From positions 17,812-81,811 of the forward strand of contig JACPGQ010000008.1 of assembly GCA_016188975.1 (NCBI GenBank): 64,000 bases of DNA, read 5' to 3'. The DNA is from Candidatus Levyibacteriota bacterium (GTDB lineage: Bacteria > Patescibacteriota > Microgenomatia > Levybacterales > UBA12049). The position numbers were made by a program, and so were the translations under genes. Numbering within the stretch: position 1 is the stretch's first letter; every line of letters starts with the position of its first letter. Below the pieces are notes generated by a model. That model made no database searches. It was not told where the DNA came from and saw only the letters and a list, made by a program, of their open reading frames with translations. Positions 1,963 through 26,685 of the stretch are shown in pieces.

Positions 1963-1977
1963 CGGGTATATCTAACT

Positions 1978-3123: not shown

Positions 3124-3124
3124 T

Positions 3125-4377: not shown

Positions 4378-4379
4378 AT

Positions 4380-6274: not shown

Positions 6275-6280
6275 AATAAC

Positions 6281-8738: not shown

Positions 8739-8744
8739 ACGATG

Positions 8745-8810
8745 TTCTTCCTTTTAACCCTCTCCCTCAGGGAGAGGGAAGGTCCCGATGAATCGGGACC
8801 AGGGTGAGGG
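8745..8810 (-). repeat. Second copy of the GC-rich multi-hairpin intercistronic element
   Basis: An outer stem (ATAACCCTC/GAGGGTTAT) encloses the hairpins GTCCCGATTCATCGGGAC and CCCTCTCCCTGAGGGAGAGGG. Confidence 0.55.
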
Positions 8811-9209: not shown

Positions 9210-9213
9210 GACG

Positions 9214-9858: not shown

Positions 9859-9878
9859 AAATAATATATAAATATGTA

Positions 9879-11123: not shown

Positions 11124-11144
11124 TCAATAAACGTGTCTGCTGTA

Positions 11145-11765
11145 TTATAAGGTACTATATGATACATATCCGCTACGCGATAATCTTTTCCTCATGATTT
11201 TTTGCTCAGCGTTTGATAAGAAAACCATCATTGTCTCAAAAAAACCAGAGACAATAAGCTCTATTGCTTGTTTTTCTGAAAGTCCTCTGCTTTGCAGATA
11301 AAATAGTTGCTCCTCATCAGGTTTCCCCACCGTTGATGCATGACCAGCCTTTAACTCATTCTCATCAATCTCAAGGGACGGCACACTTTTTCCCTTAGCA
11401 TCGTCAAAGAGCAGTACCTTTGAGGTAAAATACCCATCTGATCCCTTTGCTCCTTTCTGAATCGTGACTAATCCATCATTAGAAAAAGCAGATTTATCCC
11501 TAAAAACGCCACGGAGTATAGTAAGGCTTTTTGTTCTTGGAGCTTTATGAGTAATCTTTGTGTTGAATCCCAAAGTATTATTACCAGTTCCTAAAAACAG
11601 TCCTACAACGGTAACGCTTGCGCCTTCTCCCACCAATTCAACATCAACAATTACCTCGTTCTCTTTATCGTCAACCCAAATAAACGGGAGCATTCGTTTT
11701 TCATTTTTTTTGACTATAACTGATACGTGCTTCATCCATTTTCCAGACAAGGAGTATCCTTGCAA
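11145..11765 (-). CDS. sufD: Short SufD-like Fe-S assembly protein (C-terminal beta-helix core only)
   Basis: GHASTVGKPDEEQLFYLQSRGLSEKQAIELIVSGF is the SufB/SufD C-terminal signature. It is translationally coupled to sufB. Confidence 0.6.
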   Translation of the reverse strand: MQGYSLSGKWMKHVSVIVKKNEKRMLPFIWVDDKENEVIVDVELVGEGASVTVVGLFLGTGNNTLGFNTKITHKAPRTKSLTILRGVFRDKSAFSNDGLVTIQKGAKGSDGYFTSKVLLFDDAKGKSVPSLEIDENELKAGHASTVGKPDEEQLFYLQSRGLSEKQAIELIVSGFFETMMVFLSNAEQKIMRKRLSRSGYVSYSTL

Positions 11766-11767
11766 AG

Positions 11768-13159
11768 TTATCCAACAGACCCAGTCATCTCAAGCTGAAT
11801 TAACCTGTTTAGCTCAACCGCGTATTCCATTGGCAACTCCTTGACAATCGGCTCGACAAATCCGTTGACGATCATTACCTCAGCTTGTGTCTGGGGAATT
11901 CCTCGTGACTGAAAGTAAAACAATTGCTCTTCACCAATTTTTGAGACAGACGCTTCGTGCCCAATCGTAACTCTTTCTTCATCAATAAGCATCGTCGGAT
12001 AGGTATCAGAACGGCTTCTCTCATCAAGAATAAGGGCATCACACCTGACAGTTGACTTACTGTTTTTCGCGCCTTTGTGGATTTTTAACAACCCTCTGTA
12101 AGACGTCCTTCCACCATCTTTACTAATAGATTTTGACGTAATAGCAGAGCTTGTCTCTTGAGCCATATGAATTGCTTTTCCTCCTGCATCCTGATGCTGC
12201 CCGGATCCAGCAAAAGCAAGTGATAGAACCTCCCCTTTTGCTTTTCTTCCTTTGAGGTAGACTGAGGGGTACTTCATCGTCAATTGGCTCCCTAAATTTC
12301 CATCAATCCATTCGCCTATTCCTTCCTCCTCAACAAACATTCGTTTGGTGACTAAGTTGTAGACGTTCTTACTCCAGTTTTGAATCGTGGTATATCTGAC
12401 TCTCGCCCCTTTCTTGACAATTATTTCAACAACTGCTGCATGGAGTGAGTCAGTCGTAAAAATCGGAGCAGTACATCCTTCAACATAATGGACATATGAT
12501 CCCTCATCAGCAATGATCAACGTCCGTTCAAACTGCCCCATATTCCGGGCATTTATTCTGAAATATGCTTGAAGTGGAAGGTCAACGCGTACGCCTTTTG
12601 GTACATAAACAAATGACCCACCCGACCAGACCGCAGTATTCAGCGCGGCAAATTTATTATCAGCAGCAGGAATTACCGTCCCAAAGTTTCGTTGTAAAAG
12701 CTCAGGATACTTCTTCACTGCTGTATCTGTATCCACAAAAATGACACCTTTTTTGGCAAGCATTTTTGAGATGCTGTGATAGATGACCTCTGAATCATAT
12801 TGTGCGCCAACACCTGCAAGAAATTTCCTCTCTGCTTCCGGAATGCCGATTTTATCAAATGTCGTCTTTATTTCTGCGGGCACTTCATCCCACGACCGTC
12901 CCTTCTTATCTGTCGGCCTTACGTAGTAGTAGATATCATCAAAGTTAATTCGAGAGAGGTCTCCTCCCCAACTCGGCATTTGTTTACTGAAAAAAAGCTT
13001 CAGCGCTAAAAGCCTTTTTTGCAACATCCATTCAGGCTCCTGTTTTATTCCTGATATCACCCGAACAATTTTTTCATTAATTCCTTTCGGAGTGGAATAT
13101 ACAGGCTTGATGCTGTCGAAAAATCCAAACTTGTACTCTGAGGGATCAAACTGCTGCAT
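11768..13159 (-). CDS. sufB: Fe-S cluster assembly protein SufB
   Basis: 463 aa. [35 protein letters not shown] and other SufB blocks are present. Confidence 0.85.
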
Positions 13160-13880
13160 ACCCCTCCTTTTCGATAAGACGTACCAGCTTCATTCCCCCT
13201 GTCTTCTTGGTTTTCCCATCGATGAGCATGTGGACTTTATTAGGCTTGAGAAAGTGTAATATTCTCTGATAGTGTGTTATCAGCAAAATGCCTGTTTTTT
13301 GTTCTTCCGCTACGTGCTCTATTGCACCCGCAACAAGCTTCAAACTATCAACGTCAAGCCCTGAATCAATTTCATCAAGAATGGCAAATTTCGGTCTCAG
13401 CAGAAGCATCTGCGCTACCTCAGCTCGTTTTCGTTCTCCTCCTGAAAATCCTTCATTGACGGATCTGTGCATAAATGATTCATCAAGTCCGACAATTCCC
13501 AGAGCATCTAGAACTTTTTCTTTAAATGTAGAGAGCGGAATTTTCTCATCAGGTCTAAGTGATTTCGAGGCTGTCCGCAAAAATGCAAGAAACGATACAC
13601 CTGTAATCTCCACCGGATTTTGAAATGATACGAACAAACCTGCTCTTGCTCTCTCCTCAGGGAGTAACGTAAACATGTCATTTGCTCCAATTTTGAATTT
13701 TGAATTTTGAATTTTTACTTTATAACCGGGGTGTCCCATCAGACTCATCACGAGCGATGTTTTTCCGGATCCATTTGGTCCCATAACTACATGAATCTCC
13801 CCGGGTTTAATTGCTAAATCAACACCATGCAAAATTTCTTTTCCTTCAATTCCGGCGACTAAATTTTTAACAATCAGCAT
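13146..13880 (-). CDS. sufC: Fe-S cluster assembly ATPase SufC
   Basis: Walker [10 protein letters not shown] and ABC signature FSGGERKR. Confidence 0.85.
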
Positions 13881-13921
13881 ACATGTAACATTAAAACTAT
13901 TTAAATAGTTTTAAAAGAATA

Positions 13922-14338
13922 CTATCGTTTCTGTTGCATAAAGTCCTCAACTGACATAGCTGCAATTTTTTCTAAAAATTCTCCATTCAGTTTTCGCCAG
14001 ATTTTTCCTGTCTCACAAAACGCAGTCTTCTCACACGTCCCAGTCTTTTCTCCAATTGGACAGCAAGGAAGAAAGGGGTGTGGTGAAAAAACATGAAGAA
14101 TGTGACCAATTTTTACATTCTTGGGGTCTTTTGTGAGAAAGTATCCTCCGCGTTTTCCTTCGACTGCATCAATAACGCCAGCTTTTTTCAACTGACTAGC
14201 AAGATTCCGTAAAAAAAGTAATGAGATGTGATGCTTTTTGGCAACTTCTGAGAGAGGAAGCAAACGCTTTTTGTAGGAGTTTGCAAGAGAATGAATCAGG
14301 ATAAACGCATAGTCTTCACTGCGGGAAAAACGAATCAT
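13922..14338 (-). CDS. Rrf2-family transcriptional regulator (IscR/SufR-like) with a Cys cluster
   Basis: The N-terminal wHTH is typical of Rrf2. The Cys cluster is CCPIGEKTGTCEKTAFCE. It lies at the head of the suf operon. Confidence 0.7.
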   Translation of the reverse strand: MIRFSRSEDYAFILIHSLANSYKKRLLPLSEVAKKHHISLLFLRNLASQLKKAGVIDAVEGKRGGYFLTKDPKNVKIGHILHVFSPHPFLPCCPIGEKTGTCEKTAFCETGKIWRKLNGEFLEKIAAMSVEDFMQQKR

Positions 14339-14414
14339 ACACTAGTTTAGTATGAGTTTAAAGAAATTGCCACCATCTGTCAACGACGGTTTCGAAGACA
14401 ACCCGGAGAGGTTA

Positions 14415-15998
14415 TTATTCGCCAGTATAGCGACTGAGTTTATAGACTTTAACAACTGACACTCTCCACTCATCGACAATTTCTGCTCTACCAAAACCAG
14501 CTACCTCCCACAGTGAATTTCCCAAAGGCTTGCAACTTGTATCCTCACAAATAATAAGCAGTTGATCAGTGACGGTCTTTCGCATAGGGTCAATTGTTTC
14601 GTTTTCAATAGTTACAGGTGGCCTACCGGCAAGCTCAAAAAAATACCGATATGCATGGTCTGAGTTTCCTTTTGTGAGAAGGGCAAAATTAAAAGGCTTC
14701 CCTCCTGCTTTTTCCATGACAAACTCTGCGATCATTTTTACCTGATCTTTCTGCCTATTTGGTGATGATAGAAACGGTGCCCCCTTGAGGTTGAAAAAAA
14801 GAAGCCAAGAAAAAGCAAATAGCCCAAGGACAACTCCAATTATATTTAGTCTCTTACTCTTTACAATTGTTGCAAGTGCGTTACCGAGAAGGAGAAATGG
14901 TGCAGGAAACATAAAACCAAAATAATAATCATGAATCGGCTTCTTATAAAAGCCGAAAAGAATAATTCCGAGAAAAAACCACAGTGCGATAAGTGAATAT
15001 TGCAGTATCTTTTTCTCGTCTTTTTTCGTGTAATACTTGTAGAATTGCCAAGCAAAAATACCAGTGCTCACAATTGCAAGTATTACTGTTGCGTAATACC
15101 ACAGTGCAATACCTTGATTTGTTTGTACCGAAACTTGCTCCGGCGGAGGAAAACGGGTAATAAGCCTCCCAAAAAGCCTGAAAAAAACATTTCCCAAGAC
15201 ATCTTGAAACGCCATCCCAGTCTTATAACTTGATGAAAATGTATTGGTGAAAATAAAATTTAGTATTGTTCGGAAATTTGGAAAACCATGCCTGACCTCA
15301 AATGCTAGAAACGGTGAAAATCCGATGAGGAAACCAATAGACATCCTTGACAGAGGATGGAGCATGCTCGGAAACACTCTCTTCCTGGCTCTCATCCAAT
15401 GAGCTATGAAAAGATAGATCAGGACAATGACTCCCAAAAATGTCGCGAGGTAATGAAGTTGCATCGTGATGCCGAAAAGAACACCAATCAGGATGTATAA
15501 TCTCCGTTTTTCCTCAGCAACAGCTTTGTAAAGAAGGAAGAGCACGACGAGAGAGAAAAATGGCATTGGGTTTGGGTTCCAAGACGATCTTGAATAAGCG
15601 ATAACAACGGGTGAAACGGAGTAAAGTGCTGCAGCAAAAAGTGAAGCGGTTGACCCAAAAAATTGTTTTCCTACAAAATAGATGAGCCACACTGTAACTG
15701 TGCCGATAATCCCGATCATGATTGCTGGGCCAATAGGATCAAAATTCCATAGCCATAAAAAAGGGGCCATGAAATAGTAATAAATAGGACCGAGGAAAAA
15801 ATCACCTGCCGAAGCCCGGGGACCAAGGAGTGTCAAATCACCGAGTAAAATATTTCTGACGACGAGGACGTCTCTCCCTTCATCACCCAAAAACGTGAGG
15901 TAGTCGCCGATTCTATACAACCTCAGAAAGCCTGCACCACAGACGACGAGAAAAACAAAAAGTGACTCAAGTGAAAGCAGTCTGCGGAAAAATTTCAT
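14415..15998 (-). CDS. Polytopic membrane glycosyltransferase, GT39/PMT/ArnT-like
   Basis: More than ten predicted TM helices, with the first loop reading LGDEGRD (the DE-type motif of PMT/ArnT-family transferases). I prefer the start at MKFFRRLL (15998) over the longest-ORF start at 16067. Confidence 0.5.
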   Translation of the reverse strand: MKFFRRLLSLESLFVFLVVCGAGFLRLYRIGDYLTFLGDEGRDVLVVRNILLGDLTLLGPRASAGDFFLGPIYYYFMAPFLWLWNFDPIGPAIMIGIIGTVTVWLIYFVGKQFFGSTASLFAAALYSVSPVVIAYSRSSWNPNPMPFFSLVVLFLLYKAVAEEKRRLYILIGVLFGITMQLHYLATFLGVIVLIYLFIAHWMRARKRVFPSMLHPLSRMSIGFLIGFSPFLAFEVRHGFPNFRTILNFIFTNTFSSSYKTGMAFQDVLGNVFFRLFGRLITRFPPPEQVSVQTNQGIALWYYATVILAIVSTGIFAWQFYKYYTKKDEKKILQYSLIALWFFLGIILFGFYKKPIHDYYFGFMFPAPFLLLGNALATIVKSKRLNIIGVVLGLFAFSWLLFFNLKGAPFLSSPNRQKDQVKMIAEFVMEKAGGKPFNFALLTKGNSDHAYRYFFELAGRPPVTIENETIDPMRKTVTDQLLIICEDTSCKPLGNSLWEVAGFGRAEIVDEWRVSVVKVYKLSRYTGE

Positions 15999-16012
15999 AC
16001 ATACTCTCGGCG

Positions 16013-17149
16013 CTATACTTTTCTCTTCTTCCGCCAGATTATTTTTCGATACATGGTAAAATTCCACATGAGCAGGAAAAATGTACCAGCCAGGAAGTAG
16101 ATTCTGTAATACTGTTCACCATAGAGCATATCACCAATTTGTATCGTTCCTGACTGAATAAAAATCACACCTGTATTTGATGTTGCAAAAAAACCGATCA
16201 TCTTCTTTAAGTAAGAAAAAATACTTGTCGACTTCTGAGCTTTGAACGTCCAAACATTATTGAAGTTAAAGTTTGAGAAAATTGCAGTCTGAGCTGCAAA
16301 AATGTTTGCGAGGGCTATTGGTAAATCCGTATTGCGGACGAGAATCTCGTAGAAAACTGCGTTCAAAATAAAACCAAAACCACCAACAATTAAAAATTTA
16401 GGAAATGAGCTATGTAAAACTTCTCTCGTACGCGCAGTAAAAATATACTTGAGCAAATTAAAAATATACTCTTTAGGAGCTATTTTCGAGTTCCCCAGCG
16501 TTCTGTCTGAGAAATGAAAAGGAACCTCTGCTACAGTATATCCGTCTTGTACCGACTTGTGGAGAAATGAGACCTGGAAGGTATATCCCCGGAATTCCGT
16601 AAGCCTGTCTTTCTCTTTGAGGAAGACGTCTTTTTTTATCGCCCTATAGCCACCTGTCCAATCATGTATTGAAAATCGACCGAGTACTGTTCTTACCAAC
16701 AGATTACCGAAAATCGAGTACGCTTTACGAATGAGCGGCCAGTTAGACGGCACAGAGCCTCCACCACTATAGCGAGTTCCAATCACGACGTCATACCCGT
16801 CATCAATTTTTTTTAAAAATTCAGGAATTTTTTTTGGGTCATGCTGTCCGTCTGCATCAAACTCAAACATGACATCTGCCTGCATTTTCTCAACGGCGTA
16901 CGTCATGCCTCTAATGTATGCAGCACCCAATCCATGTTTCTCTCCCTGCACGATGTCAATATTTTTCCATTCCTTCATCATTTTTTTCACCTCTTCTGCA
17001 GTCCCGTCTGGAGAGTTATCATCAGCAACTAAAATTGCCAGAGAATAATTGGTGATTTGTGGAACTATATCTTTCTCAAGTGTCTTGATAATAGGCTCAA
17101 TATTTCCTTTTTCGTTATAGGTAGGAATGATAATAACTACTTTTTTCAT
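16013..17149 (-). CDS. GT2 polyprenyl-phosphate sugar synthase (Dpm1/GtrB-like) fused to a C-terminal GtrA-like TM domain
   Basis: IIIPTYNEKGNI...VADDNSPDGT is a GT-A fold with DxD. The C-terminal four TM helices are GtrA-like. Confidence 0.65.
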   Translation of the reverse strand: MKKVVIIIPTYNEKGNIEPIIKTLEKDIVPQITNYSLAILVADDNSPDGTAEEVKKMMKEWKNIDIVQGEKHGLGAAYIRGMTYAVEKMQADVMFEFDADGQHDPKKIPEFLKKIDDGYDVVIGTRYSGGGSVPSNWPLIRKAYSIFGNLLVRTVLGRFSIHDWTGGYRAIKKDVFLKEKDRLTEFRGYTFQVSFLHKSVQDGYTVAEVPFHFSDRTLGNSKIAPKEYIFNLLKYIFTARTREVLHSSFPKFLIVGGFGFILNAVFYEILVRNTDLPIALANIFAAQTAIFSNFNFNNVWTFKAQKSTSIFSYLKKMIGFFATSNTGVIFIQSGTIQIGDMLYGEQYYRIYFLAGTFFLLMWNFTMYRKIIWRKKRKV

Positions 17150-18108
17150 ACCGTCTTAAAATATTCGATTGTTTTATCAATACCCTCTTCGACTGACACC
17201 TTAGGACTCCACCCAAGCTGCGTTTTTGCTTTCATAATATCCGGGTTTCGACGCTTTGGATCATCCTCCGGAAGATCCATATTCTCAATGGCAAGAGAAG
17301 GATCAATCTTCTTCTTGATAAGCTCAGCGATGTCTTGTATTGTTCGTTCATCCGTATTTCCTAGGTTAAAAACATGCCCGCTACTTCCAACTGTGAACAT
17401 CGCGCGAACAAGTCCATCTACCATGTCATGAACGTAACAAAAGCTTCTCGTCTGCAACCCATCCCCATAAACGGTAAGCGCTTGATGAGCGAGAGCTTGA
17501 TTAATAAAATTTGAGACTACTCTCCCATCATCTTTTTGCATTGACGGACCATAGGTATTAAAAATTCTAATAACCCTGGCATCGAGTCCATACTTTCGTA
17601 TAAACCCAAACGTCATTGCCTCGCCGAAGCGTTTTCCCTCATCATAGACGGAGCGCGGTCCGTTTGGATTGACGTTTCCAAAATATGTTTCTTTTTGCGG
17701 AGACTGTTCAGGATCCCCATATACTTCTGAAGAAGAGGTATACAGAAATGACGCACCGTGGTCTTTTGCCAAAAGCAGCATATGATACGTACCGACGCTA
17801 TTAACGAGTAGCGTTTCTATAGGATATGCGATGTAGCTTTTTGGGCTGTTTTTGTTTGGAGAAGCTGGGGATGCAAGGTGAAAAATATGATCTATCTTTT
17901 CTTCTCCGTACACGTTTGTATCATATGGAGAAGTGACATCACGTTCTAAAAAACGAAAAGAGGAGTCAGCCTCTAAGTCAGCAATATTTTCTCTTTGGCC
18001 GGTAAGGAGATTATCAACGCAAATCACACTATTGCCATCTTTAAGGAGACGGCGGGATAGATGTGAACCAATAAAACCAGCACCTCCTGTAATAAGGATT
18101 CTTGCCAT
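17146..18108 (-). CDS. uxs: UDP-glucuronate decarboxylase (UDP-xylose synthase)-like SDR
   Basis: ILITGGAGFIGSHL, YDEGKRFGEAMTF and RIFNTYGP match UXS-type extended SDRs. Confidence 0.65.
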   Translation of the reverse strand: MARILITGGAGFIGSHLSRRLLKDGNSVICVDNLLTGQRENIADLEADSSFRFLERDVTSPYDTNVYGEEKIDHIFHLASPASPNKNSPKSYIAYPIETLLVNSVGTYHMLLLAKDHGASFLYTSSSEVYGDPEQSPQKETYFGNVNPNGPRSVYDEGKRFGEAMTFGFIRKYGLDARVIRIFNTYGPSMQKDDGRVVSNFINQALAHQALTVYGDGLQTRSFCYVHDMVDGLVRAMFTVGSSGHVFNLGNTDERTIQDIAELIKKKIDPSLAIENMDLPEDDPKRRNPDIMKAKTQLGWSPKVSVEEGIDKTIEYFKTV

Positions 18109-18167
18109 ATTTCTATCTTATATGAAATCGGTAAAATGAGAAAGTCATGTATGAAGAATACCGAGGA

Positions 18168-19145
18168 CTAGCTGATATTTTTTTGCTCGCTTGCGATATC
18201 TGCCTTAACCATCATTTCTACAAGTTCGGCAAATAAGGTTCGTGGCTTCCATCCAAGAACTTTCTTTGCTTTACTATAGTCACCAATTAGGTAATCGACC
18301 TCAGCAGGACGCATGAACTCATGCTTGTTTGGCACGACGTATTTTTTCCAATCAGAAATACCAACTGTCTTAAAAGCGAGCTGCACAAATTCCTCAACAC
18401 TATGGTTTTCACCTGTTGCGATAACATAATCATCTGGCTCATCTTGTTGCAGCATGAGCCACATTGCTTCGACATAATCACCTGCAAATCCCCAGTCCCG
18501 TTTCGCGTCCAGGTTCCCAAGTTCTATGGTCTTCTGCTTACCCAGATGAATTCTCGCAACTCCATGCGTGATTTTTCTCGTCACAAACTCCAAGCCACGC
18601 CTCGGAGACTCGTGGTTAAAAAGAAGCCCTGAGCTGGCAAAAAGATTATAACTCTCCCGATAGTTAAGCGTAATGTAGTGTCCGTAGACTTTTGCTACCC
18701 CGTAGGGACTTCGGGGATAAAATCTCGTCGTTTCCTTCTGCGGCGTCTCAGTAACTTTACCAAACATTTCAGAAGATGAAGCCTGGTAAAATTTGATCTT
18801 TGGATTCACGCTCCGGATCGCCTCAAGCATTCTGGTAACTCCAATTGCCGTAAATTCTCCTGTCAAAACCGGCTGCGTCCATGACGTTTTAACAAATGAC
18901 TGAGCTGCAAGGTTATATACTTCATCCGGATTTGACTCCCTTATCGCTTCTGTGAGTGAGCTCTGGTCTAAAAGGTCTCCTGAGAGGAGTGTTATTTTAT
19001 CTTGTATCTGTTTTATATTGCCAAAATTTTGCGTGCTTGTTCGTCTTGTGAGGCCGTAAACGGTATAGCCTTTATCAAGTAGCAATTCTGCAAGATACGA
19101 TCCGTCTTGCCCCGTAACACCCGTGATAAGCGCTGTTTTTGCCAT
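18168..19145 (-). CDS. gmd: GDP-mannose 4,6-dehydratase
   Basis: [19 protein letters not shown] and [19 protein letters not shown] are GMD signatures. Confidence 0.85.
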
Positions 19146-19157
19146 CGAGTTCTTATT

Positions 19158-20117
19158 TTAAGCAATCCTTCGCCAATAGTCCAGTACGTCTCGGAGTGAT
19201 CTATCAATTGAAATAGTCGTCTCCCAACCAGTTTGTTTTCGAAGCTTTGTATTATCGGTCCTATTGTCGGGAATATCAACTGGCATGAAGCGGGACTGAT
19301 CTGTCTCAATCGTAATTTTCTCTGTTGAAAAACTGACGAGCTTCTCAAGAATTACCTTCATTTCATAAGACACGCCCGATCCGATATTATAGACATCACC
19401 GGGTGTACCCTTTTCTGCCAGAAGTACATATGCCTTCACAATATCCCGTACATCAGTAAAATCGCGTTTTGCTGAAAGCTTTCCAACTCGAAGGACAGGT
19501 TCTTGCTTCCTTTTTTCAATAAGGGCAATTTGCTGCGCAAACGTCGAGACAGCATAGGCAGTTTTTTGTCCGGGACCAATGTGATTAAAGGGCCGGACAC
19601 GCACAATATGCTGGTCATATGTAAGAAAGTACTGAAGACCAAGATAATCCTGGGTAATTTTTGATACTGCGTACGGGCTTACCGGATTCATTTGTGTTGC
19701 TTCGTCTATCGGTAAATCTGATTCCTTCACGATTCCATAAACCTCAGCTGATGAAACTATGACGATCCTGCTTGCGGACAATCCGGCCTTACGGATCGCT
19801 TCAAGAAGGTGGATTTGCCCAGTCACGTTCGTTGTAAAAGTGAGCGAAGGATCCTTAAAACTCTGCGCAGGAGACGCAAGAGCAGCAAGATGAAAAATGA
19901 CATCGGGCTTTATGGAAGAAATGACAGAATCAATTGCCTGCCCGTCAGTAAGATCAACTTTGTGAAGATGTAATTGTGGGGCGATATCGGCAATATTCTC
20001 AAGGCTCTGCTCAGCGTGATAGGTGCCCGAGACAGCATACACACCCTCGTTGAGAAGCTGCCTCGCAAGAAAATTTCCTGCAAAACCTGAAATGCCTGTG
20101 ATAAAAGCCTTTTTCAT
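19158..20117 (-). CDS. rmd: GDP-4-keto-6-deoxy-D-mannose reductase-like SDR (Rmd-type)
   Basis: Extended SDR (AFITGISGFAGNFLA, YAVSK) immediately downstream of gmd. The assignment to Rmd rests on synteny. Confidence 0.55.
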   Translation of the reverse strand: MKKAFITGISGFAGNFLARQLLNEGVYAVSGTYHAEQSLENIADIAPQLHLHKVDLTDGQAIDSVISSIKPDVIFHLAALASPAQSFKDPSLTFTTNVTGQIHLLEAIRKAGLSASRIVIVSSAEVYGIVKESDLPIDEATQMNPVSPYAVSKITQDYLGLQYFLTYDQHIVRVRPFNHIGPGQKTAYAVSTFAQQIALIEKRKQEPVLRVGKLSAKRDFTDVRDIVKAYVLLAEKGTPGDVYNIGSGVSYEMKVILEKLVSFSTEKITIETDQSRFMPVDIPDNRTDNTKLRKQTGWETTISIDRSLRDVLDYWRRIA

Positions 20118-21412
20118 CGGCCTACTCCAATGTAGGAAAATCCAAGTTCTCGCATTTTTGCAGGGTCGTAGACATTGCGGCCATCTATAACAAGCGGTGA
20201 TTTCATAAGCTTTTTTAATTTCTGGAGATCAATTTCTCGAAACTCATCCCATTCTGTTACAAGTATCATTAGATCAGCATCAGCAACGCATGAGTAGAGA
20301 TCCGAGGCAAAACTCAAGCCACTTCCCGCAAGTATCCGCTTCGCATTTCCCATTGCAATCGGGTCATATGCCTTAATCTTTGCTCCCTTTGCAGTAAGTT
20401 GGTTGATGATGACAAGCGATGGTGCATCACGCATATCATCTGTGTCTGGCTTAAAAGAAAGCCCTAATACTGCAATTGTTTTTCCTTTAACATCGTGTTT
20501 GAGCATTTTCTCCGCTTTCTTAACAAGTGAGAGCATCATGTGCTTGTTAATTGCCTCGACTTCATGAAGGAGAGAAAAATCGTAACCATGTTGTTTTGCG
20601 ATGGCAATAAGCGCTTTCACGTCTTTAGGAAAACAACTACCACCATATCCTGCCCCAGCATTGAGAAATGACTTTCCGATCCGGGCATCATACCCTATAC
20701 CTTCAAGAACTTTTGTCCCGTCTGCTCCGACATTTTCGGACAGATTTGCAATTGCATTGGCGTAGGAGATTTTTGTGGCGAGAAAAGCATTGGATGCGTA
20801 TTTGATCATTTCTGCCGTCTCAATGGTAGTAAGAACCTGCACTGACTCAATTGGTGAGTGGAGAGCAAGCATGACTTCTCTTGCCTTCTCTGAATCTATA
20901 CCTATAACAACTCTGTCTGGATGTCGTGTGTCACTAATTGCCTGACCTTCACGGAGAAACTCAGGAATAGATGCGACGTCAAATGTCGCTTTGAGGGGTT
21001 TTACCTTTGTAATAATCTCAAGAATTTTTTTATTGGTCCCAACGGGGACCGTACTTTTTGTTGCAATGACAGTGTATCCTGAAAGGTGTTTCCCAATTTT
21101 TTCAGCAACGTCAAAAACGACAGACAAATCAGCTTCGCCACTGTCTTTTGGGGGAGTACCAACCGCAATAAAAACGGCATCTGAAGACGGGACTGAAGGT
21201 TTGTAATCAAGCGTAAAGAGGAGTCTTTTTGCTTTGACGTTGCGTTTGACGAGTTCCTCAAGCCCCGGCTCATAGATCGGAATAATTCCCTTCTTGAGGT
21301 TTTCAATTTTTTCTGGCGTGTGTCCTATGACCCAAACAGTATTACCCAGATCAGCAAAAACGGCCGCTGAGACAAGACCAACGTACCCATGACCGACAAA
21401 CGTGATAGTCAT
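20114..21412 (-). CDS. ugd: UDP-glucose 6-dehydrogenase family protein
   Basis: The N-terminal Rossmann fold reads ITFVGHGYVGLVSA. The catalytic Cys context is GGSCFPKD. Confidence 0.75.
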   Translation of the reverse strand: MTITFVGHGYVGLVSAAVFADLGNTVWVIGHTPEKIENLKKGIIPIYEPGLEELVKRNVKAKRLLFTLDYKPSVPSSDAVFIAVGTPPKDSGEADLSVVFDVAEKIGKHLSGYTVIATKSTVPVGTNKKILEIITKVKPLKATFDVASIPEFLREGQAISDTRHPDRVVIGIDSEKAREVMLALHSPIESVQVLTTIETAEMIKYASNAFLATKISYANAIANLSENVGADGTKVLEGIGYDARIGKSFLNAGAGYGGSCFPKDVKALIAIAKQHGYDFSLLHEVEAINKHMMLSLVKKAEKMLKHDVKGKTIAVLGLSFKPDTDDMRDAPSLVIINQLTAKGAKIKAYDPIAMGNAKRILAGSGLSFASDLYSCVADADLMILVTEWDEFREIDLQKLKKLMKSPLVIDGRNVYDPAKMRELGFSYIGVGR

Positions 21413-21464
21413 ATTGTGATTTTCACAGATTGATAGCGGATGATCACGGATCAGTGAAAATCAG

Positions 21465-22349
21465 CTATAAATCAGTGGCAATTTTTTTAAGTCCTTCTTC
21501 AAAAGTCATCATTTGCACACCGAGATGTTTGATTTTATCATTTTTTAGCGTGAGATTGAAAGGCCTTGGCGCACGGCCATGGAAAAATTCAGCTCTTTTT
21601 ACTTTGGTAATGGTTGGATTTTCAAGTAAAAATGCTCTTGCTATAGCAATACACGCATCAAATGGTGAGAGTGACGAGCTCCCAACGACATGGATTATTC
21701 CCTCAAATCGCTTTCGTATGATTGCGTCAATTCCTTTTGCAATATCATCAATATATGTTGGCGTCATGAGATGGTCAGTGACTGCTTTCACTTCTTGCCC
21801 AGCCCTAAGCCGAGAAAGAAGAGCACGAACAAAATCCGATTTTGCATCAAACTTTGCCCGGTATGGATACGAAATTCGCATAATAACATTCGAGGCTGAC
21901 GCAGATTGCGTTCGTTTCTCTCCCTCGTATTTTGTAGTTGCATACCAATTTGTCGGGTTGGGGGCATCCTCCTCACCATATCCGCCTGAAGGCGTATTTG
22001 CACCATCGAAAACAAAATCTGTCGAAACGTAGATCATCCTATGCCCTGCATCTGAGCATGCACGAGCGACATTTTCTGTGCCGAGTACATTTATCCTCCA
22101 TGCGTCGCCATTCTCTCCCATTGATTGATCTTTCTCACACGCATCAACATCTGCTTTTGCCGCAAGATGCAGCAGAGTTGCCCCCGAATTCTCACGGAGT
22201 GGCGAAAGTGTTTCAGGTCTTGTGATATCAACCCCTGTTTCCAAGCTGAAACTAGTGACGTCGTAGGTTACTGAAAGTAATTCTTTGAGCCGTGAACCAA
22301 CAAGCCCAGACCCACCAAGCATGACAAGTTTTTCCCTAGCCGTTCCCAT
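21465..22349 (-). CDS. rfbD: dTDP-4-dehydrorhamnose reductase
   Basis: RmlD-like SDR (LVMLGGSGLVGS, YATTK). Confidence 0.75.
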   Translation of the reverse strand: MGTAREKLVMLGGSGLVGSRLKELLSVTYDVTSFSLETGVDITRPETLSPLRENSGATLLHLAAKADVDACEKDQSMGENGDAWRINVLGTENVARACSDAGHRMIYVSTDFVFDGANTPSGGYGEEDAPNPTNWYATTKYEGEKRTQSASASNVIMRISYPYRAKFDAKSDFVRALLSRLRAGQEVKAVTDHLMTPTYIDDIAKGIDAIIRKRFEGIIHVVGSSSLSPFDACIAIARAFLLENPTITKVKRAEFFHGRAPRPFNLTLKNDKIKHLGVQMMTFEEGLKKIATDL

Positions 22350-23349
22350 ACTGTTTGTTGTAATAGTCCTGGTATGCTCCTGACTTTACGTCTTTCCACC
22401 AGTCTTTGTGATCCTGATACCACGCAACCGTTTTTGAGAGCCACTCATCAAAATCATGCTCTGGTTCCCAATCTAATTCTTCTCGTGTCTTGCTCCAATC
22501 AACCGCATAGCGGCGGTCATGACCAGGACGATCTTTGACAAACTCAATCATTGATTCGTCTTCTCCAAGTATATCCAGGATCTTTTTCACCACAGATAGA
22601 TTGTTTACGTCGCCTCCCATGCCTCCCACGCAATACGTTTCACCACTTTTTCCTTTTTGCAAAACGAGGTCTATTGCCCGACAATGGTCTTCCACATAGA
22701 GCCAGTCACGAACGTATAGGCCATCTCCATACACAGGAACCTTTTTTCCTTCAAGAAGATTCGTAATCGCTAAGGGAATAAATTTTTCTGGAAACTGGTA
22801 GGGACCGAAATTGTTTGAGCAGTTCGTGATCGTAATGGGAAGCCCGTATGTTGTGTAGTAAGCTCTCACCAGATGGTCTGACCCTGCTTTGCTTGCCGCG
22901 TATGGACTTCGTGGATTATATGCTGTCATTTCAGTGAATTTGCTTGTATCTTCAAGAGTTAGCGAGCCAAACACTTCATCTGTCGATATATGGTGAAATC
23001 TCCCCACTCCTTCTTTCAGCGCTGCATCAAGAAGCACCTGAGTCCCGCTGACATTCGTTTCAACAAATGCGGCAGGCTCCATGATGGAACGGTCAACATG
23101 GCTCTCAGCGGCAAAATGAACAACAGTGTCGACACCTTTAAGGGATTGCTCAACCGTTTTTGGATCACGGATATCTCCGCGAATAAATGTATACGAGGAA
23201 GAATCCTCAATGTCTTTCAGGTTTTCTAAATTTCCAGCATACGTGAGTTTATCAAAGTTGATAATGTGGTCCTCTGGATGGTTTTTTATCCAGTACAAAA
23301 TAAAATTTGATCCGATAAACCCGGCGCCGCCCGTAACAAACAACTTCAT
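22336..23349 (-). CDS. rfbB: dTDP-glucose 4,6-dehydratase
   Basis: MKLFVTGGAGFIGSNF and YAASKAGSDHLVRAY, at RmlB-typical length. Confidence 0.85.
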   Translation of the reverse strand: MKLFVTGGAGFIGSNFILYWIKNHPEDHIINFDKLTYAGNLENLKDIEDSSSYTFIRGDIRDPKTVEQSLKGVDTVVHFAAESHVDRSIMEPAAFVETNVSGTQVLLDAALKEGVGRFHHISTDEVFGSLTLEDTSKFTEMTAYNPRSPYAASKAGSDHLVRAYYTTYGLPITITNCSNNFGPYQFPEKFIPLAITNLLEGKKVPVYGDGLYVRDWLYVEDHCRAIDLVLQKGKSGETYCVGGMGGDVNNLSVVKKILDILGEDESMIEFVKDRPGHDRRYAVDWSKTREELDWEPEHDFDEWLSKTVAWYQDHKDWWKDVKSGAYQDYYNKQYGNG

Positions 23350-23888
23350 AGCCCACCTTTCTGCCTTAAGGCATGCAGCATTAGTATACCAAGAGATGCA
23401 ATCGAATTTTTTATCTGCCCACGAAGTACACGCTTGACAGCTTCTTCTAACGGCATTTTGACGAGTGTTATTTCCTCATCCTCTTCAGGAGACGCTGCTC
23501 CTCCTACTCTCAAATCAGTTGCGAGAAAAAGGTAGATTTTCGTCTTAATAACACTACTGGTCCCCGAAAACGCAGCAAACTCTGTCCATTTACCTGCTGT
23601 TATCCCAACCTCTTCCCGCAACTCTCGTTTTGCTTCAAAGAGGGGTGATTCATCCTTTTCGACATGTCCAGCAACTTCTTCCAGAAACGTCTGGCCATGG
23701 AGATACCGATACTGCTTAATAAGATATATTTCTCCGTCGTCTGCTATGGGAAAAACGGATGCTATTGAGGGACGATAGACATTCAGATGAGTACGCTTCG
23801 TCCCTTTTATGTCAAGTTGCGTCTCAACGACTGTGAACAAATCAGCATGTAGAATAGGCCGTTGGGAGAGAATTTTTGTTGGGATCAT
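23346..23888 (-). CDS. NUDIX hydrolase
   Basis: Nudix box GHVEKDESPLFEAKRELREEVGI. Confidence 0.7.
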   Translation of the reverse strand: MIPTKILSQRPILHADLFTVVETQLDIKGTKRTHLNVYRPSIASVFPIADDGEIYLIKQYRYLHGQTFLEEVAGHVEKDESPLFEAKRELREEVGITAGKWTEFAAFSGTSSVIKTKIYLFLATDLRVGGAASPEEDEEITLVKMPLEEAVKRVLRGQIKNSIASLGILMLHALRQKGGL

Positions 23889-24328
23889 TTGACGATACCA
23901 CTCTCAAGTTCTTCTTGAGAATACTCTACCTGCTCATCCTTAAGCTTAGGATCGTACGGGGGATCAGGATAATTGACGAGCCATCCCTCTTCTGCACTGA
24001 TGTTTTCAAGCCCTGTTGCAACGTTTTTTGGGATAAAAAGCCGAGACGGCTCTTGTGCGTCAAGTATATGCTCTGTTCTGACCCATCGATCTCCTTCACG
24101 TTCGTACGTAATAATCTTCATCTTTCCCCTGAGGCATACATATCGTGCCGCTCTCACTCGGTGTAAATGATACCCTTTAAATGCTCCTTTATAGGCAACA
24201 GACATATACACTTCTGTCTTTTGATTTGTATCCTTGTCCTTAAACATCTCCAAAAGCCAACCGTTTTCTTTCTTACCATGGTCAAATGTTTGTACTTTTT
24301 TCACGGGTTCTACAAAAACATTATTCAT
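23885..24328 (-). CDS. Cupin-fold sugar epimerase/isomerase (RmlC- or FdtA/WxcM-like) in the position normally held by rmlC
   Basis: HLHRVRAARYVCLRGKMKII resembles the RmlC/FdtA HxH...K core. At 147 aa it is short for RmlC. The call rests on synteny plus this motif. Confidence 0.4.
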   Translation of the reverse strand: MNNVFVEPVKKVQTFDHGKKENGWLLEMFKDKDTNQKTEVYMSVAYKGAFKGYHLHRVRAARYVCLRGKMKIITYEREGDRWVRTEHILDAQEPSRLFIPKNVATGLENISAEEGWLVNYPDPPYDPKLKDEQVEYSQEELESGIVK

Positions 24329-25065
24329 TTCAGCTCTCCTTCCTGGACTTTTTTGGCAACCATCATATTTGCCCTAAGTAACTCATCATATGATGTACCT
24401 GCATCGATCCACCAATCAATGATCTTACACTCCAATGTCCCTTCCTGTAAATAAAAATTATTTAAATCCGTAACCTCTAACTGCTTTCTTGCTGAGGGCT
24501 TTAGCTTTCTAATAAAGTCAAATACGCGATGATCATACATATATATTCCTGTCTGTGCGATCCGGGATTTCGGCTTCTCAGGTTTTTCCTCAATCGACAG
24601 CACTTTTCCATCATCATTTATTTCGACAACTCCATACTGTTTAGAATCGGTATCCATCTCTATACCAAAAACTACTGCTCCCTTTTCTTTCTTCTCAAAC
24701 TCAGACACTGTGTTGCGGAGGTTGAAGTTAAAAATATTATCTCCAAGAAGAACGAGGAGCTTCTCACCTCCGGCAAACTCCTCAGCGAGCGCAATGCCAT
24801 CGGCAATCCCACCTGTTGGATTCTGTTGAACCGCATAGTAAAGACGGAGACCAAACTCATCACCAGTTTTCAGCAGATTCGCGAAATCACCGTTATGATC
24901 TGGCGATGAGGTCAATAATACCTGTTTAATACCAGCACGCTGCATTGCTTCAAGTACATAAAAGATCATCGGCTTATTATAAACAGGGAGGAGATGTTTG
25001 TTGGTTACTGATGTAAGAGGACGTAATCTTGTTGCGAGTCCACCCGCCAATATTGTTCCCTTCAT
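24325..25065 (-). CDS. rfbA: Sugar-1-phosphate nucleotidyltransferase (RmlA-like, short form)
   Basis: The N-terminal G-rich loop is KGTILAGGLATRLRPLT, with further RmlA family motifs downstream. Confidence 0.75.
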   Translation of the reverse strand: MKGTILAGGLATRLRPLTSVTNKHLLPVYNKPMIFYVLEAMQRAGIKQVLLTSSPDHNGDFANLLKTGDEFGLRLYYAVQQNPTGGIADGIALAEEFAGGEKLLVLLGDNIFNFNLRNTVSEFEKKEKGAVVFGIEMDTDSKQYGVVEINDDGKVLSIEEKPEKPKSRIAQTGIYMYDHRVFDFIRKLKPSARKQLEVTDLNNFYLQEGTLECKIIDWWIDAGTSYDELLRANMMVAKKVQEGELK

Positions 25066-25068
25066 ACG

Positions 25069-25338
25069 CTATTTAAGAAGAAAAAGCGTGAAATAAACAG
25101 CACTTATTCCAAGCATTCCGATTAGGACATATTCTACCACAATTTTCGCGTGAATGTCATGGTGGATGAAGTGATGCAAAAGCGCCCATCCGACATAAAA
25201 TGCCGACATAAAAATTGTAACTCCCATCACGAGATTCAGATCGTGGAGCGTTTGTGAAATGAGCAATACACCCGCAAGCAAAACGATAACAAGCCCGAGG
25301 TAGTAGCCAAGATGCCTCTTTGTCTTATAATCCATCAT
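25069..25338 (-). CDS. Small integral membrane protein, function unknown
   Basis: 89 aa with two or three TM helices. Confidence 0.3.
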   Translation of the reverse strand: MMDYKTKRHLGYYLGLVIVLLAGVLLISQTLHDLNLVMGVTIFMSAFYVGWALLHHFIHHDIHAKIVVEYVLIGMLGISAVYFTLFLLK

Positions 25339-26336
25339 ATTATGACACCATTCCCAATCATGATTATGGTTGTAATAATAACGAAAACAAATAACATTGT
25401 ATCAATATTATGTGCAACAATACGTACAATTTTTCTCCTCTGAAAAATAACCAGATCGATGAGAAGCGTTGAAAAAAGCACCAAGAGAATGGTGAGAGAG
25501 ATGCCTTTTGTCACTTGTTTCATGTCCAAAAGAGGCTGCGTGGTAAAGGATGCAACTGAAGCAAGCTCCCCAGCCGTTTCTGCCTTTTGCGGTTGCACCT
25601 GAGGTACGCCTGCTTGCTGCACGGCTTCGGATCTCGAATCGGCAATTTCAGATGGGGTTTCACGTCGTTGTCCAAACATCTCGACAACAAGAACTGTTTC
25701 ATCACCCGTAAGCGTGCCTGGAACAACTGCAAAGCCAATATCTTGATAATTTGTTGAGAGCATATTCTCTCTGTGGCCCGGGCTGTCCATCCAGGCTTGA
25801 ATAACATCAGGTGATGTTGTGAAGCCTCGTGCCAAATTTTCTCCTGCGTAAAGGTAATCATAACCGGCTGATTTGATAAATACCCAAGGAGTAGAACCAA
25901 TAGGGCTATTGTGTGCCCAATAATTTTTCGTAAACATATCAGCCGCTTTCTGGGCAGCGGCATTTGAAAGAGCATCATTAAACTTCAGAGGTGTCAATCC
26001 ATTTTCTACCCGTTTCTTGTTCGTCATCTCCAGTAATTCCGCAACGGTAATACTTGTACGGACGCCTAGGATATCTCCCCGCTTTGTATGAAGAACCGAG
26101 AAAGAAAACTCCAAAACGAATAACAAGACGATGACGACAAGAAGGCTTGAATGATGGAGAAGTCGTGCACGGTGATTATTGGACTCACGGGGAAAAAAGA
26201 GATGATGCAGGAAGTCTCTCATTGTATCTGAAATAAATTCAAGTGAAACGTTAGTCGGTAAACGGTTATGAGGCCCGTATCGATATTCGTCTTTCGTTTT
26301 TCGTAACCGACCAACGAAACGGGCATCGTTACCCAA
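25335..26336 (-). CDS. CAP/SCP (PR-1-like) domain protein with flanking TM helices
   Basis: YWAHNSPIGSTPWVFIKSAGYDYLYAGENLARG...SPGHRENML is a CAP domain. The start is uncertain because the first ~70 nt overlap a repeated intergenic-type element (26268-26335). Confidence 0.55.
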   Translation of the reverse strand: MGNDARFVGRLRKTKDEYRYGPHNRLPTNVSLEFISDTMRDFLHHLFFPRESNNHRARLLHHSSLLVVIVLLFVLEFSFSVLHTKRGDILGVRTSITVAELLEMTNKKRVENGLTPLKFNDALSNAAAQKAADMFTKNYWAHNSPIGSTPWVFIKSAGYDYLYAGENLARGFTTSPDVIQAWMDSPGHRENMLSTNYQDIGFAVVPGTLTGDETVLVVEMFGQRRETPSEIADSRSEAVQQAGVPQVQPQKAETAGELASVASFTTQPLLDMKQVTKGISLTILLVLFSTLLIDLVIFQRRKIVRIVAHNIDTMLFVFVIITTIIMIGNGVII

Positions 26337-26370: not shown

Positions 26371-26685
26371 TTAACTATACACTGGTTCAATCAACTCGCC
26401 AAGGGGTTTCCCGTTTATCGGGACATTGAGGAGAAAACCTAAAGCGTTCGCGACCGAAGCGCCCACACGAAGTCCAGTAAATGAACCCGGACCTTCGCTT
26501 ACATGTATAGCTGCAATATCCTTCAGCTGCAATGTGTGTTTCCGCAGAAGCTGATCCACAAGCGATAACACCTCTTGTGGATTTTCTTTTCCTCTATTTC
26601 CCCTTGCTGCGTACTTTCTTCCTTCAATCGTAATCCCAACGATAATCTCATCGCTTCTTGCTGTATCAATGGATAGGACTACCAT
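26371..26685 (-). CDS. tsaB: tRNA t6A biosynthesis protein TsaB (YeaZ), short N-terminal-domain-only form
   Basis: GPGSFTGLRVGASVANALGF is the YeaZ signature. At 104 aa it is far shorter than the ~230 aa typical of TsaB. Confidence 0.55.
   Translation of the reverse strand: MVVLSIDTARSDEIIVGITIEGRKYAARGNRGKENPQEVLSLVDQLLRKHTLQLKDIAAIHVSEGPGSFTGLRVGASVANALGFLLNVPINGKPLGELIEPVYS

Follow-up and report, generated by a model that had tools for sequence, protein, structure and literature searches.

The stretch of DNA analyzed here (the window, 64,000 nucleotides of Candidatus Levyibacteriota bacterium, assembly GCA_016188975.1, contig JACPGQ010000008.1, positions 17,812 to 81,811 of the forward strand) carries at 14415-25065 a block of genes that combines three routes of nucleotide-sugar synthesis with a GT2 glycosyltransferase fused to a GtrA-like membrane domain (GT2-GtrA) and with a polytopic membrane transferase of the GT-C type. 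As judged by homology and gene order, it is reasonably probable that this block builds an envelope glycoconjugate via nucleotide-sugar supply and a lipid-phosphate-sugar relay, and the block is a vertically inherited core unit of Levybacteria, syntenic in about 80 species-level genomes. An original prediction, made from the letters of the window alone, had named 11 genes at these coordinates together with their enzyme classes and had placed them in a genome of the Candidate Phyla Radiation (CPR); Pfam, NCBIfam and PDB searches agreed with the former, and the CPR origin is correct. According to the list of open reading frames (ORFs), the interval is filled by 11 co-directional minus-strand ORFs, which either overlap by 4-14 nucleotides or are separated by gaps of at most 59 nucleotides. 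When the two upstream genes for a CAP/YkwD-domain protein and an 89-residue protein are added, 13 genes at about 14415-26336 of the minus strand result, which probably form a single operon. The order from 5' to 3' of the block is CAP, 89-residue gene, rmlA, (cupin), (NUDIX), rmlB, rmlD, ugd, rmd, gmd, uxs, GT2-GtrA and GT-C; ugd and uxs are thus not adjacent, with rmd and gmd between them. The predicted products of the 11 genes are:

24325-25065, minus strand: RmlA, short-form glucose-1-phosphate thymidylyltransferase (PF00483, 190 bits)
23885-24328, minus strand: cupin of 147 residues at the usual RmlC position, with weak Pfam matches to FdtA (24 bits) and RmlC (20 bits)
23346-23888, minus strand: NUDIX hydrolase of the ADP-ribose or nucleoside diphosphate (NDP)-sugar pyrophosphatase type (PF00293, 47 bits)
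22336-23349, minus strand: RmlB, dTDP-glucose 4,6-dehydratase (TIGR01181, 479 bits, cutoff 365)
21465-22349, minus strand: RmlD-type dTDP-4-keto-6-deoxyhexose reductase (PF04321, 182 bits)
20114-21412, minus strand: Ugd, UDP-glucose 6-dehydrogenase, with all three UDPG_MGDP_dh domains present
19158-20117, minus strand: Rmd, GDP-4-keto-6-deoxy-D-mannose reductase (250 bits to A. thermoaerophilus Rmd, 2pk3)
18168-19145, minus strand: Gmd, GDP-mannose 4,6-dehydratase (TIGR01472, 436 bits, cutoff 415)
17146-18108, minus strand: Uxs, UDP-glucuronate decarboxylase / UDP-xylose synthase (human UXS1, 318 bits)
16013-17149, minus strand: polyprenyl-phosphate glycosyltransferase, GT2 + GtrA_DPMS_TM (PF00535 + PF04138)
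14415-15998, minus strand: GT-C-fold glycosyltransferase of 527 residues (Pfam PMT_2); the ORF extends to 16067

For the homology-based family assignments of these genes, the E-values rule out chance. Conservation of the block was analyzed by scanning one genome per GTDB species for relatives of the GT-C protein, which yielded 80 loci (designated by L numbers) with a relative at 46-67% identity, mostly named Levybacteria/Levyibacteriota or Patescibacteria. tblastn of the window proteins against these loci revealed that the gene order is kept throughout. Genes were counted in the 61 loci in which the sequence ahead of the GT-C gene spans 9.9 kb or more: ugd, rmlB and the GT2 gene are present in 61/61, gmd and rmd in 59/61, rmlA and rmlD in 57/61 and uxs in 55/61, while the CAP gene and the 89-residue gene were found in 43/61, a count limited by the locus edges. 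Maintenance of the order while the proteins diverged to 46-67% identity points to selection for co-expression. Gene content varies by species, uxs, rmd, gmd, the cupin gene and the NUDIX gene each having been gained or lost. A gmd gene of a different type, 47-51% identical and on the opposite strand, occurs in L035, L036, L038, L046, L053, L058, L062-L064, L069, L078, L079, L083 and L084; L027, L085 and L086 possess a single short-chain dehydrogenase/reductase (SDR) intermediate between Gmd and Rmd; rmd is missing from L020 and L029, and uxs from L010, L027, L034, L063, L080, L081, L085 and L086.

The block had originally been regarded as an island, a reading that was rejected since its GC content of 0.41-0.45 equals that of the flanks and its synteny extends across about 80 Levybacteria species. 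Both observations speak against a horizontally acquired glycosylation island, which, together with a standard O-antigen, capsule or teichoic-acid locus, is a very improbable explanation. Rhamnose, D-rhamnose and xylose are typical sugars of O-antigens and S-layer glycans, and the best match of Rmd derives from an S-layer glycan pathway. However, Wzx, Wzy, Wzm/Wzt, TagGH, a polysaccharide ABC exporter and an initiating phosphotransferase were all missing among the window ORFs scanned with Pfam, in the block as well as beside it; adjacent Wzx/Wzy or ABC exporters had been named in the original prediction as what would refute it. The only ABC proteins near the block are SufC and FtsE, and MurJ (60001-61665), the lipid II flippase, is located 35 kb off. 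The O-antigen or teichoic-acid locus was rejected on the basis of this gene content.

The GT2-GtrA protein consists of a GT2 catalytic domain, interface helices and a GtrA-like domain of four transmembrane helices (PF04138, 49 bits, residues 251-372), a fusion which, by sequence, is the architecture of type-III dolichyl-phosphate-mannose synthase (DPMS). It matched DPMS of P. furiosus (PfDPMS; 5mlz) with 145 bits over residues 3-331, i.e., reaching into the transmembrane region, as compared to 59 bits for ArnC and 40 bits for GtrB among the other solved polyprenyl-phosphate GT2 enzymes matched, and JGI annotates the orthologues as 'dolichol-phosphate mannosyltransferase'. The donor- and acceptor-binding residues of PfDPMS have been described (PMC5526996), and their counterparts are Y11 for Y10, E13 for E12, D44 for the guanine-contacting D39, G73-L74 for G68-L69, 98-DADGQH-103 for 89-DADLQH-94, R126, R141 and S145 for the acceptor phosphate-binding R117, R131 and S135, and R216 and K222 for R202 and K208 of the A-loop. 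K178, by contrast, is not conserved and corresponds to T190. Across 79 Levybacteria orthologues, these DPMS-equivalent residues show little or no variation, R126, R141 and S145 being invariant, whereas the position of Lys178 is occupied by Thr, Ile or Ala. The description of this enzyme as Dpm1-like and fused to GtrA is thus correct, judging by both the similarity to PfDPMS and the retained binding residues. Conservation of D44, G73-L74 and H103, the guanine and mannose contacts, is consistent with GDP-mannose as donor, and presence of Gmd implies a GDP-mannose pool. A single GT2 enzyme implies a single lipid-linked sugar. The notion of three pathways feeding the GT2 and GT-C enzymes therefore holds as far as the existence of three routes is concerned, but not for the feeding, as one GT2 stands for one sugar, its residues are GDP-mannose-like and mannose is the product of none of the three routes. 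With regard to translocation, the title of a crystallographic study from 2026 (PMC12992685) suggests that DPMS may flip its own product.

The GT-C gene starts at the ATG at 15998, which is preceded by GAGAG 5 nucleotides upstream, and the resulting length of 527 residues matches the NCBI protein and its homologues; the 100% identical NCBI protein of Candidatus Levybacteria bacterium is annotated as 'glycosyltransferase family 39 protein'. When 82 homologues with identities as low as 25% were aligned, the residues R26, D39, G41, R42, D43, G59, S63, P71, H182 and L480 were invariant, and position 40 was E in 54 and Q in 28 of them. The first-loop acidic motif that had been proposed for this protein is thus present, as F-L-G-D-[EQ]-G-R-D, accompanied by the motifs S-R-S-S-W-N-P-N and Q-L-H-Y and by a conserved pair of cysteines, C484 and C489, in the C-terminal extracytoplasmic domain. 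On the basis of its polytopic topology, the first-loop acidic residue and the extracytoplasmic C-terminal domain, the GT-C fold is predicted with confidence, and D39 is likely the catalytic acidic residue. Pfam recognized PF13231 (PMT_2) at 58.8 bits and a sub-threshold STT3 match, and the scan revealed no PF02366, PF16192 (PMT_4TMC) or MIR domain. No PDB sequence match was obtained for the GT-C protein at E<=1; this protein and the cupin were therefore subjected to structure prediction and fold search, in which Foldseek placed ArnT first (template modelling score, TM, 0.61-0.63) and Pmt1/2 low (0.35). Comparison with known enzymes gave scores of 23.2 for Pmt4, 23.0 for ALG12, 22.6 for AglB, 22.0 for Pmt2, 22.0 for STT3B and 21.5 for ArnT, with 11-12% identity throughout. 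Of the designation as GT39 transferase, the GT-C fold and the first-loop motif stand, but 'GT39' is an annotation label that is not demonstrable for a protein lacking PF02366 and about equally distant from PMT, ALG12, STT3/AglB and ArnT; a first-loop Asp-Glu is common among GT-C enzymes and not specific for GT39. The family is large, comprising 6613 cluster representatives (50% identity) at E<=1e-3 and 493 at E<=1e-30, and is abundant in Microgenomates. Six N-terminally extended homologues are GT2::GT-C fusions, and in other lineages the GT-C gene directly follows a short GT2 gene. These 'Rosetta-stone' fusions and the adjacency support a dedicated relay from GT2 to GT-C, and thereby strengthen the initially proposed logic of lipid-linked glycosylation outside the membrane. 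Some relatives possess further GT-C genes: L003/L004 (11.6-21.5 kb), L087, L092 and L093 carry batteries of GT87, MptA_B, PMT_2, PMT, YfhO and PTPS-related GT-C genes, often each beside a short GT2 gene and together with a Polysacc_synt (Wzx-like) gene, which is an unusually heavy investment in lipid-linked glycosylation for genomes of about 1 Mb in some Levybacteria/CPR.

Protein O-mannosylation, in which GT2-GtrA would make polyprenyl-phosphate-mannose and a PMT-like GT-C enzyme would mannosylate Ser/Thr of Pro/Thr-rich linkers, is unlikely, though a serious rival. It would agree with the DPMS-type residues of GT2, with the first-loop Asp-Glu of the GT-C protein and with the pairing of Ppm1 and Pmt in actinobacteria (PMC5882110). 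A substrate might be the lamin-tail-domain (LTD) protein (30899-31774, minus strand), which displays a linker of about 70 residues with (T/S)P(T/K/R) repeats of the TPTP(K/R) type and a C-terminal transmembrane anchor, and which is in principle a plausible O-glycosylation substrate by its sequence. However, the LTD gene is located 6 kb from the block with unrelated genes in between, and nothing ties it to the block. Glycosylation of the LTD protein and a part in episymbiotic attachment, both put forward in the original prediction, are speculative. Moreover, the GT-C protein lacks PF02366, PMT_4TMC and MIR, its score to Pmt4 is indistinguishable from those to ALG12, AglB, STT3B and ArnT, and ArnT ranks above Pmt1/2 in the fold search. 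Related genomes additionally hold separate, true PF02366 PMT genes besides members of the D-[EQ]-G-R-D family.

As to the nucleotide sugars, RmlA, RmlB, RmlD, Gmd, Rmd, Ugd and Uxs are clear homologues of characterized enzymes on the basis of sequence comparison, and the predicted enzyme sets for UDP-xylose (Ugd and Uxs) and GDP-D-rhamnose (Gmd and Rmd) are complete. RmlA scored 235 bits to TIGR01207, under the cutoff of 361, with B. anthracis RfbA (3hl3, 220 bits) as best PDB match, and RmlD scored 196 bits to TIGR01214, under the cutoff of 224, its top PDB matches being RmlD proteins (3sc6, 102 bits). Ugd reached 458 bits for TIGR03026 (cutoff 190) and 548 bits for TuaD, and Rmd matched the GDP-6-deoxy-D-mannose reductase of PDB entry 6x3b with 175 bits. 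Uxs gave merely 72-74 bits to the decarboxylase domain of ArnA as compared to 318 bits to human UXS1. Across the species L007-L086, the rmlA slot is taken by either of two subtypes of NTP-transferase, one with about 70% and the other with about 47% identity to the window protein, the latter even in the closest relative L007. RfbA is the top match for both, though below cutoff, suggesting that the gene was replaced xenologously or that the specificities differ. In L020, another Levybacterium, RmlB is encoded by an ORF of 724 residues (L020:2650-4824), the ends of which match RmlB (578 bits) around an insert of about 1 kb that is probably an intein.

The cupin had been described as an unusual replacement of the canonical RmlC. 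Replacement in the window is supported, since PF00908 was matched at 19.9 bits, under the cutoff of 27, and TIGR01221 was not matched, but the replacement is not unusual, as it recurs in CPR genomes. No PDB sequence match was obtained for the cupin, the members of its family are 66-85% identical across Patescibacteria and Chloroflexota and annotated as 'WxcM-like' or 'RmlC-like', and the family occurs mostly in CPR genomes; in Doudnabacteria, the cupin gene lies within rmlB-x-cupin-rmlD-rmlA, i.e., in the usual RmlC slot. The AlphaFold2 model (predicted local distance difference test, pLDDT, 93) had its best match, at TM 0.70, in CapF of S. aureus, the cupin domain of which is a C3-epimerase of a UDP-4-keto-sugar, as compared to about 0.53 for RmlC structures. 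The H-x-H motif is invariant in the alignment, and the column aligned with the catalytic Tyr of RmlC reads Asn-Tyr. Taken together with the predicted fold, the cupin is probably a dTDP-4-keto-6-deoxyhexose epimerase, and L-rhamnose would be the most likely dTDP-sugar product if it epimerizes both C3 and C5. As it is closest to CapF and not to RmlC, 3,5-epimerization, and hence L-rhamnose, is unproven.

The NUDIX protein shows an intact Nudix box (G-x5-E-x7-RELREEVGI), and its best PDB matches are ADP-ribose pyrophosphatases (1mk1, 74 bits). Its location within the rml set, initially considered unusual, turned out to be common, as 41/60 Levybacteria blocks contain a NUDIX gene there. At least two sequence-unrelated subtypes occur, and the gene presumably is a recurrent, selected feature of the rml set; by its sequence, the enzyme probably controls or cleans up a nucleotide-sugar pool. 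NDP-sugar hydrolases are also encoded in other polysaccharide clusters, GDP-mannose mannosyl hydrolase of E. coli being an example of a comparable logic.

Following this, we propose that RmlA, RmlB, the CPR-type cupin epimerase and the RmlD-type reductase would provide a dTDP-6-deoxyhexose in the cytoplasm, where Gmd and Rmd would form GDP-D-rhamnose and Ugd and Uxs would form UDP-glucuronate and UDP-xylose, with the NUDIX pyrophosphatase trimming or cleaning these pools. The sugars supplied would presumably be consumed by Leloir glycosyltransferases, which are presumed to be encoded elsewhere because none was found among the window ORFs scanned with Pfam. The DPMS-type GT2-GtrA would charge polyprenyl phosphate with a single sugar, for which mannose is the most likely candidate, the lipid-linked sugar would cross the membrane, possibly via the GtrA-like domain of the enzyme itself, and the GT-C enzyme would pass it to an acceptor of the envelope on the outer face. 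By analogy with the GacIJKL, Csd and Wps systems and the actinobacterial Ppm1/GT-C pathways, we favour as acceptor a wall or lipid-anchored glycopolymer made from the rhamnose, xylose and glucuronate donors, such as a rhamnose-rich wall polysaccharide or a lipoglycan. The three nucleotide-sugar routes in this scheme are indicated by homology, and donor and acceptor are our inference.

Several points weigh against the proposed scheme. The DxDxQ motif and the phosphate-binding Arg are common to all polyprenyl-phosphate GT2 enzymes, including the UDP-N-acetylglucosamine (UDP-GlcNAc) users WpsA and GacI (PMC10821137), and since they are shared whatever the sugar, the assignment of mannose rests on Leu74, His103 and the overall similarity. 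The uxs gene overlaps the GT2 start and is located immediately upstream in about 90% of the species (55/61), and in the distant relative L093 a GalE-like gene occupies the same slot upstream of GT2-GtrA; these adjacencies suggest that the product of the upstream SDR could be the GT2 donor. A cupin gene is lacking in 42/60 Levybacteria blocks, so that a dTDP-sugar other than L-rhamnose may be the end product; the remaining 18 contain 11 cupins of the window type, 4 RmlC-like and 3 FdtA-like ones. Moreover, the Pfam scan of the window ORFs detected neither an exporter nor a rhamnosyl-, xylosyl- or glucuronosyl-transferase, the boundaries of the block rest solely on consensus scans, and a single product shared by all block genes, as the scheme would have it, is assumed.

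The adjacency of uxs leads to a possible but doubtful alternative, namely that GT2-GtrA makes polyprenyl-phosphate-xylose or -D-rhamnose and that the GT-C enzyme adds this sugar outside the membrane. The stop codon of uxs runs into the start codon of GT2 in L003, L005 and the window (ATGA in the latter), the median gap to GT2 over all upstream neighbours is 12 nucleotides, and where uxs is missing the upstream neighbour of GT2 is gmd or rmd. The GalE-like SDR gene that precedes the GT2-GtrA homologue of L093 fits as well; being 24% identical, it was rejected as a UXS. GDP-D-rhamnose, in particular, is a 6-deoxy-mannose that would fit a DPMS-type pocket, and Lys178, which in PfDPMS contacts O4/O6 of mannose, is not conserved here. 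On the other hand, 6/61 species (8 among all loci retrieved) keep GT2 and GT-C without uxs, and across all loci the variants of the GT2 active-site motifs do not track presence or absence of uxs, so that adjacency yields no donor assignment. The invariant, DPMS-like guanine-contact residues D44 and G73-L74 argue against a UDP donor, genes that are neighbours in a long operon give little evidence for channelling of substrates, and our literature search turned up no bacterial polyprenyl-phosphate-xylose. A bolder version of this alternative is likewise unlikely: xylose or D-rhamnose would be charged onto polyprenyl phosphate, the D-[EQ]-G-R-D GT-C enzymes would constitute a new family adding that sugar to a mainly-CPR wall glycopolymer or protein, and the CAP and 89-residue proteins would be accessory or acceptor. 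GDP-mannose is tentatively put first as donor at somewhat below an even chance, UDP-xylose is a clearly weaker candidate, and GDP-D-rhamnose and the sum of all other sugars appear improbable to a similar degree.

It is also decidedly unlikely that the block has no common product, in which case a housekeeping set of nucleotide-sugar genes would stand beside a GT2/GT-C pair that serves an unrelated process, e.g., general supply of polyprenyl-phosphate-mannose. The lack of a Leloir glycosyltransferase, polymerase and exporter in the window would be compatible with this, as would the varying presence of uxs, rmd, gmd, cupin and NUDIX genes and the fact that the other GT-C genes of relatives (GT87, MptA_B, PMT, YfhO, PTPS-related) also need a lipid-linked donor. 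Contrarily, the order of the genes is maintained phylum-wide despite protein identities of 46-67%, the GT-C gene always directly follows GT2, and the fusions found elsewhere mean a dedicated pair. An envelope glycoconjugate assembled with the help of the entire block is the reading we prefer.

Synteny of the two upstream genes with the block implies that the functional unit reaches upstream of 14415-25065. The following features are located at its two ends:

25335-26336, minus strand: membrane-anchored CAP/YkwD-domain protein (PF00188, 76 bits; TIGR02909 YkwD, 113 bits, below cutoff)
25069-25338, minus strand: 89-residue protein with three predicted transmembrane helices and the His-rich stretch HHFIHHDIH, overlapping the CAP gene by 4 nucleotides
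14370-14389, minus strand: terminator-like hairpin after the GT-C gene, weak and from the consensus scan only
14383-14355, minus strand: promoter-like site overlapping the hairpin, ahead of the rrf2-suf genes, from the consensus scan only

The CAP protein displays an N-terminal transmembrane helix, an extracytoplasmic CAP domain and C-terminal transmembrane helices, and its start probably lies inside the ORF. The 89-residue protein has no Pfam or NCBIfam match. A pair of a CAP gene and a gene for about 91 residues is also found beside GT2-GtrA and GT-C genes in the distant lineages L087 and L093. Pairs of a CAP/YkwD gene and a gene for a His-rich protein of about 90 residues with three transmembrane helices were noted in the window, L087, L088 and L093, and in Doudnabacteria a CAP gene is likewise located near rml genes. 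The hairpin at 14370-14389 is probably the 3' end of the operon, as far as a consensus scan can indicate.

Upstream, the block is neighboured by the CAP gene, a TsaD-like fragment and a Crp-like gene, and downstream by rrf2-sufCB. The ORF at 26371-26685 (minus strand, 104 residues) matches only positions 32-84 of PF00814, a short N-terminal part of TsaD/TsaB, and could represent either a TsaB-like protein of minimal size or a fragment; L090 has a similar gene for 109 residues and L005 a Sua5-TsaD fusion of 307 residues. In about 58/68 Levybacteria, the GT-C gene is directly followed by DUF5679, DUF4446 and DUF3048 genes, which in the window are located at 793-3032, 11 kb beyond the GT-C gene. 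The intervening segment (about 3100-14340; Rrf2-SufCB(S/U)-phosphatase-ferredoxin-POR) is also present in L005, L009, L014, L026, L034 and L082, and displacement of the DUF genes indicates that it is a lineage-specific insertion or rearrangement. Within this segment, the gene for the beta subunit of pyruvate:ferredoxin oxidoreductase looks interrupted (4380-6274, minus strand): the ORF 5003-6274 contains Intein_splicing and LAGLIDADG_3 domains, and the ORF 4380-5006, in another frame and overlapping by 4 nucleotides, encodes the C-terminal TPP_enzyme_C and PFO_beta_C part. The same gene is a single ORF of 302 residues in L005, and the interruption is probably due to an intein, either intact or degraded.

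Previous work on CPR genomes mentions rml genes and abundant glycosyltransferases in general terms only (PMC5220378, PMC11809585), and our literature search retrieved nothing on the block, the GT-C subfamily, the cupin family, or GT-C enzymes or mannosylation in Levybacteria/Patescibacteria. All components of the block are known kinds of enzymes that have already been annotated automatically, and the finding is otherwise an expected combination of known pathway types. Almost no experimental knowledge exists on the surface chemistry of CPR/Patescibacteria, yet it is their surface that contacts hosts and phages, and the block, being the most conserved sugar-related locus of this whole candidate phylum, gives a concrete and testable handle on it. 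Two uncharacterized, widespread families have been defined, namely the D-[EQ]-G-R-D GT-C proteins and the CapF-like 147-residue cupins replacing RmlC in many CPR genomes. Furthermore, a small, expressible gene set can be named (GT2-GtrA, GT-C, the 147-residue cupin and NUDIX), the activities of which would reveal the sugars displayed by Levybacteria.

In comparison to known systems, GT2-GtrA resembles PfDPMS (5mlz) in possessing a GT2 domain, interface helices and four transmembrane helices and in keeping all of the nucleotide-, metal- and phosphate-binding residues described for it, and the products of DPMS and of actinobacterial Ppm1 with Pmt or MptA-type enzymes are likewise used by GT-C enzymes of the outer face. 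By contrast, GT2-GtrA occurs in a bacterial (CPR) host with presumably polyprenyl rather than dolichyl phosphate as carrier, Lys178 is replaced, and the gene is located among deoxy-sugar and pentose genes instead of mannose-metabolism genes. The ArnC/ArnT pathway for aminoarabinose of lipid A shares the gene logic from Ugd via a UDP-glucuronate decarboxylase and GT2 to GT-C, and in the Foldseek search the GT-C model matched ArnT best. However, the block has no aminotransferase, formyltransferase, deformylase or ArnE/F, its decarboxylase is a true UXS, and its GT2 reached only 59 bits to ArnC; an Arn-like pathway was rejected on the absence of ArnB, ArnD and the formyltransferase and on the nature of the decarboxylase. 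The organism is not expected to make lipid A; genes for it are absent from a related CPR genome (PMC5220378). A galacturonate relay of the RgtE / RgtA-D type was ranked low since there is no UDP-glucuronate 4-epimerase and the GT2 is DPMS-like and not ArnC-like. Compared to the RmlABCD pathway, the 147-residue cupin replaces the PF00908 RmlC in the window and a NUDIX gene is inserted into the rml set.

The monoderm systems for transmembrane glycosylation, i.e., GacI/J/K/L of S. pyogenes, CsdAB/CflA and WpsA/B/G/J of lactococci, CsbB/YfhO of B. subtilis and GtrA/B/C of phages, have in common with the Levybacteria block a DxDxQ polyprenyl-phosphate glycosyltransferase of family GT2, a GtrA-type membrane module and a polytopic GT-C enzyme moving a single sugar outside the membrane. 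They differ in that the GtrA-like module of Levybacteria is fused to GT2, with no separate flippase or small activator, that the GT-C enzyme belongs to the uncharacterized D-[EQ]-G-R-D subfamily, and that the locus contains no gene for a rhamnosyltransferase or an ABC exporter. The Levybacteria GT2 is, moreover, nearer to the GDP-mannose-using DPMS than to GacI and GtrB, which use UDP-GlcNAc and UDP-glucose. Decoration of rhamnans by GT2, flippase and GT-C enzymes (PMC10821137) is nevertheless analogous to the relay proposed here: the acceptor in streptococci and lactococci is a rhamnose polymer, and in Levybacteria the genes for rhamnose synthesis are co-located with the GT2-GtrA and GT-C genes.

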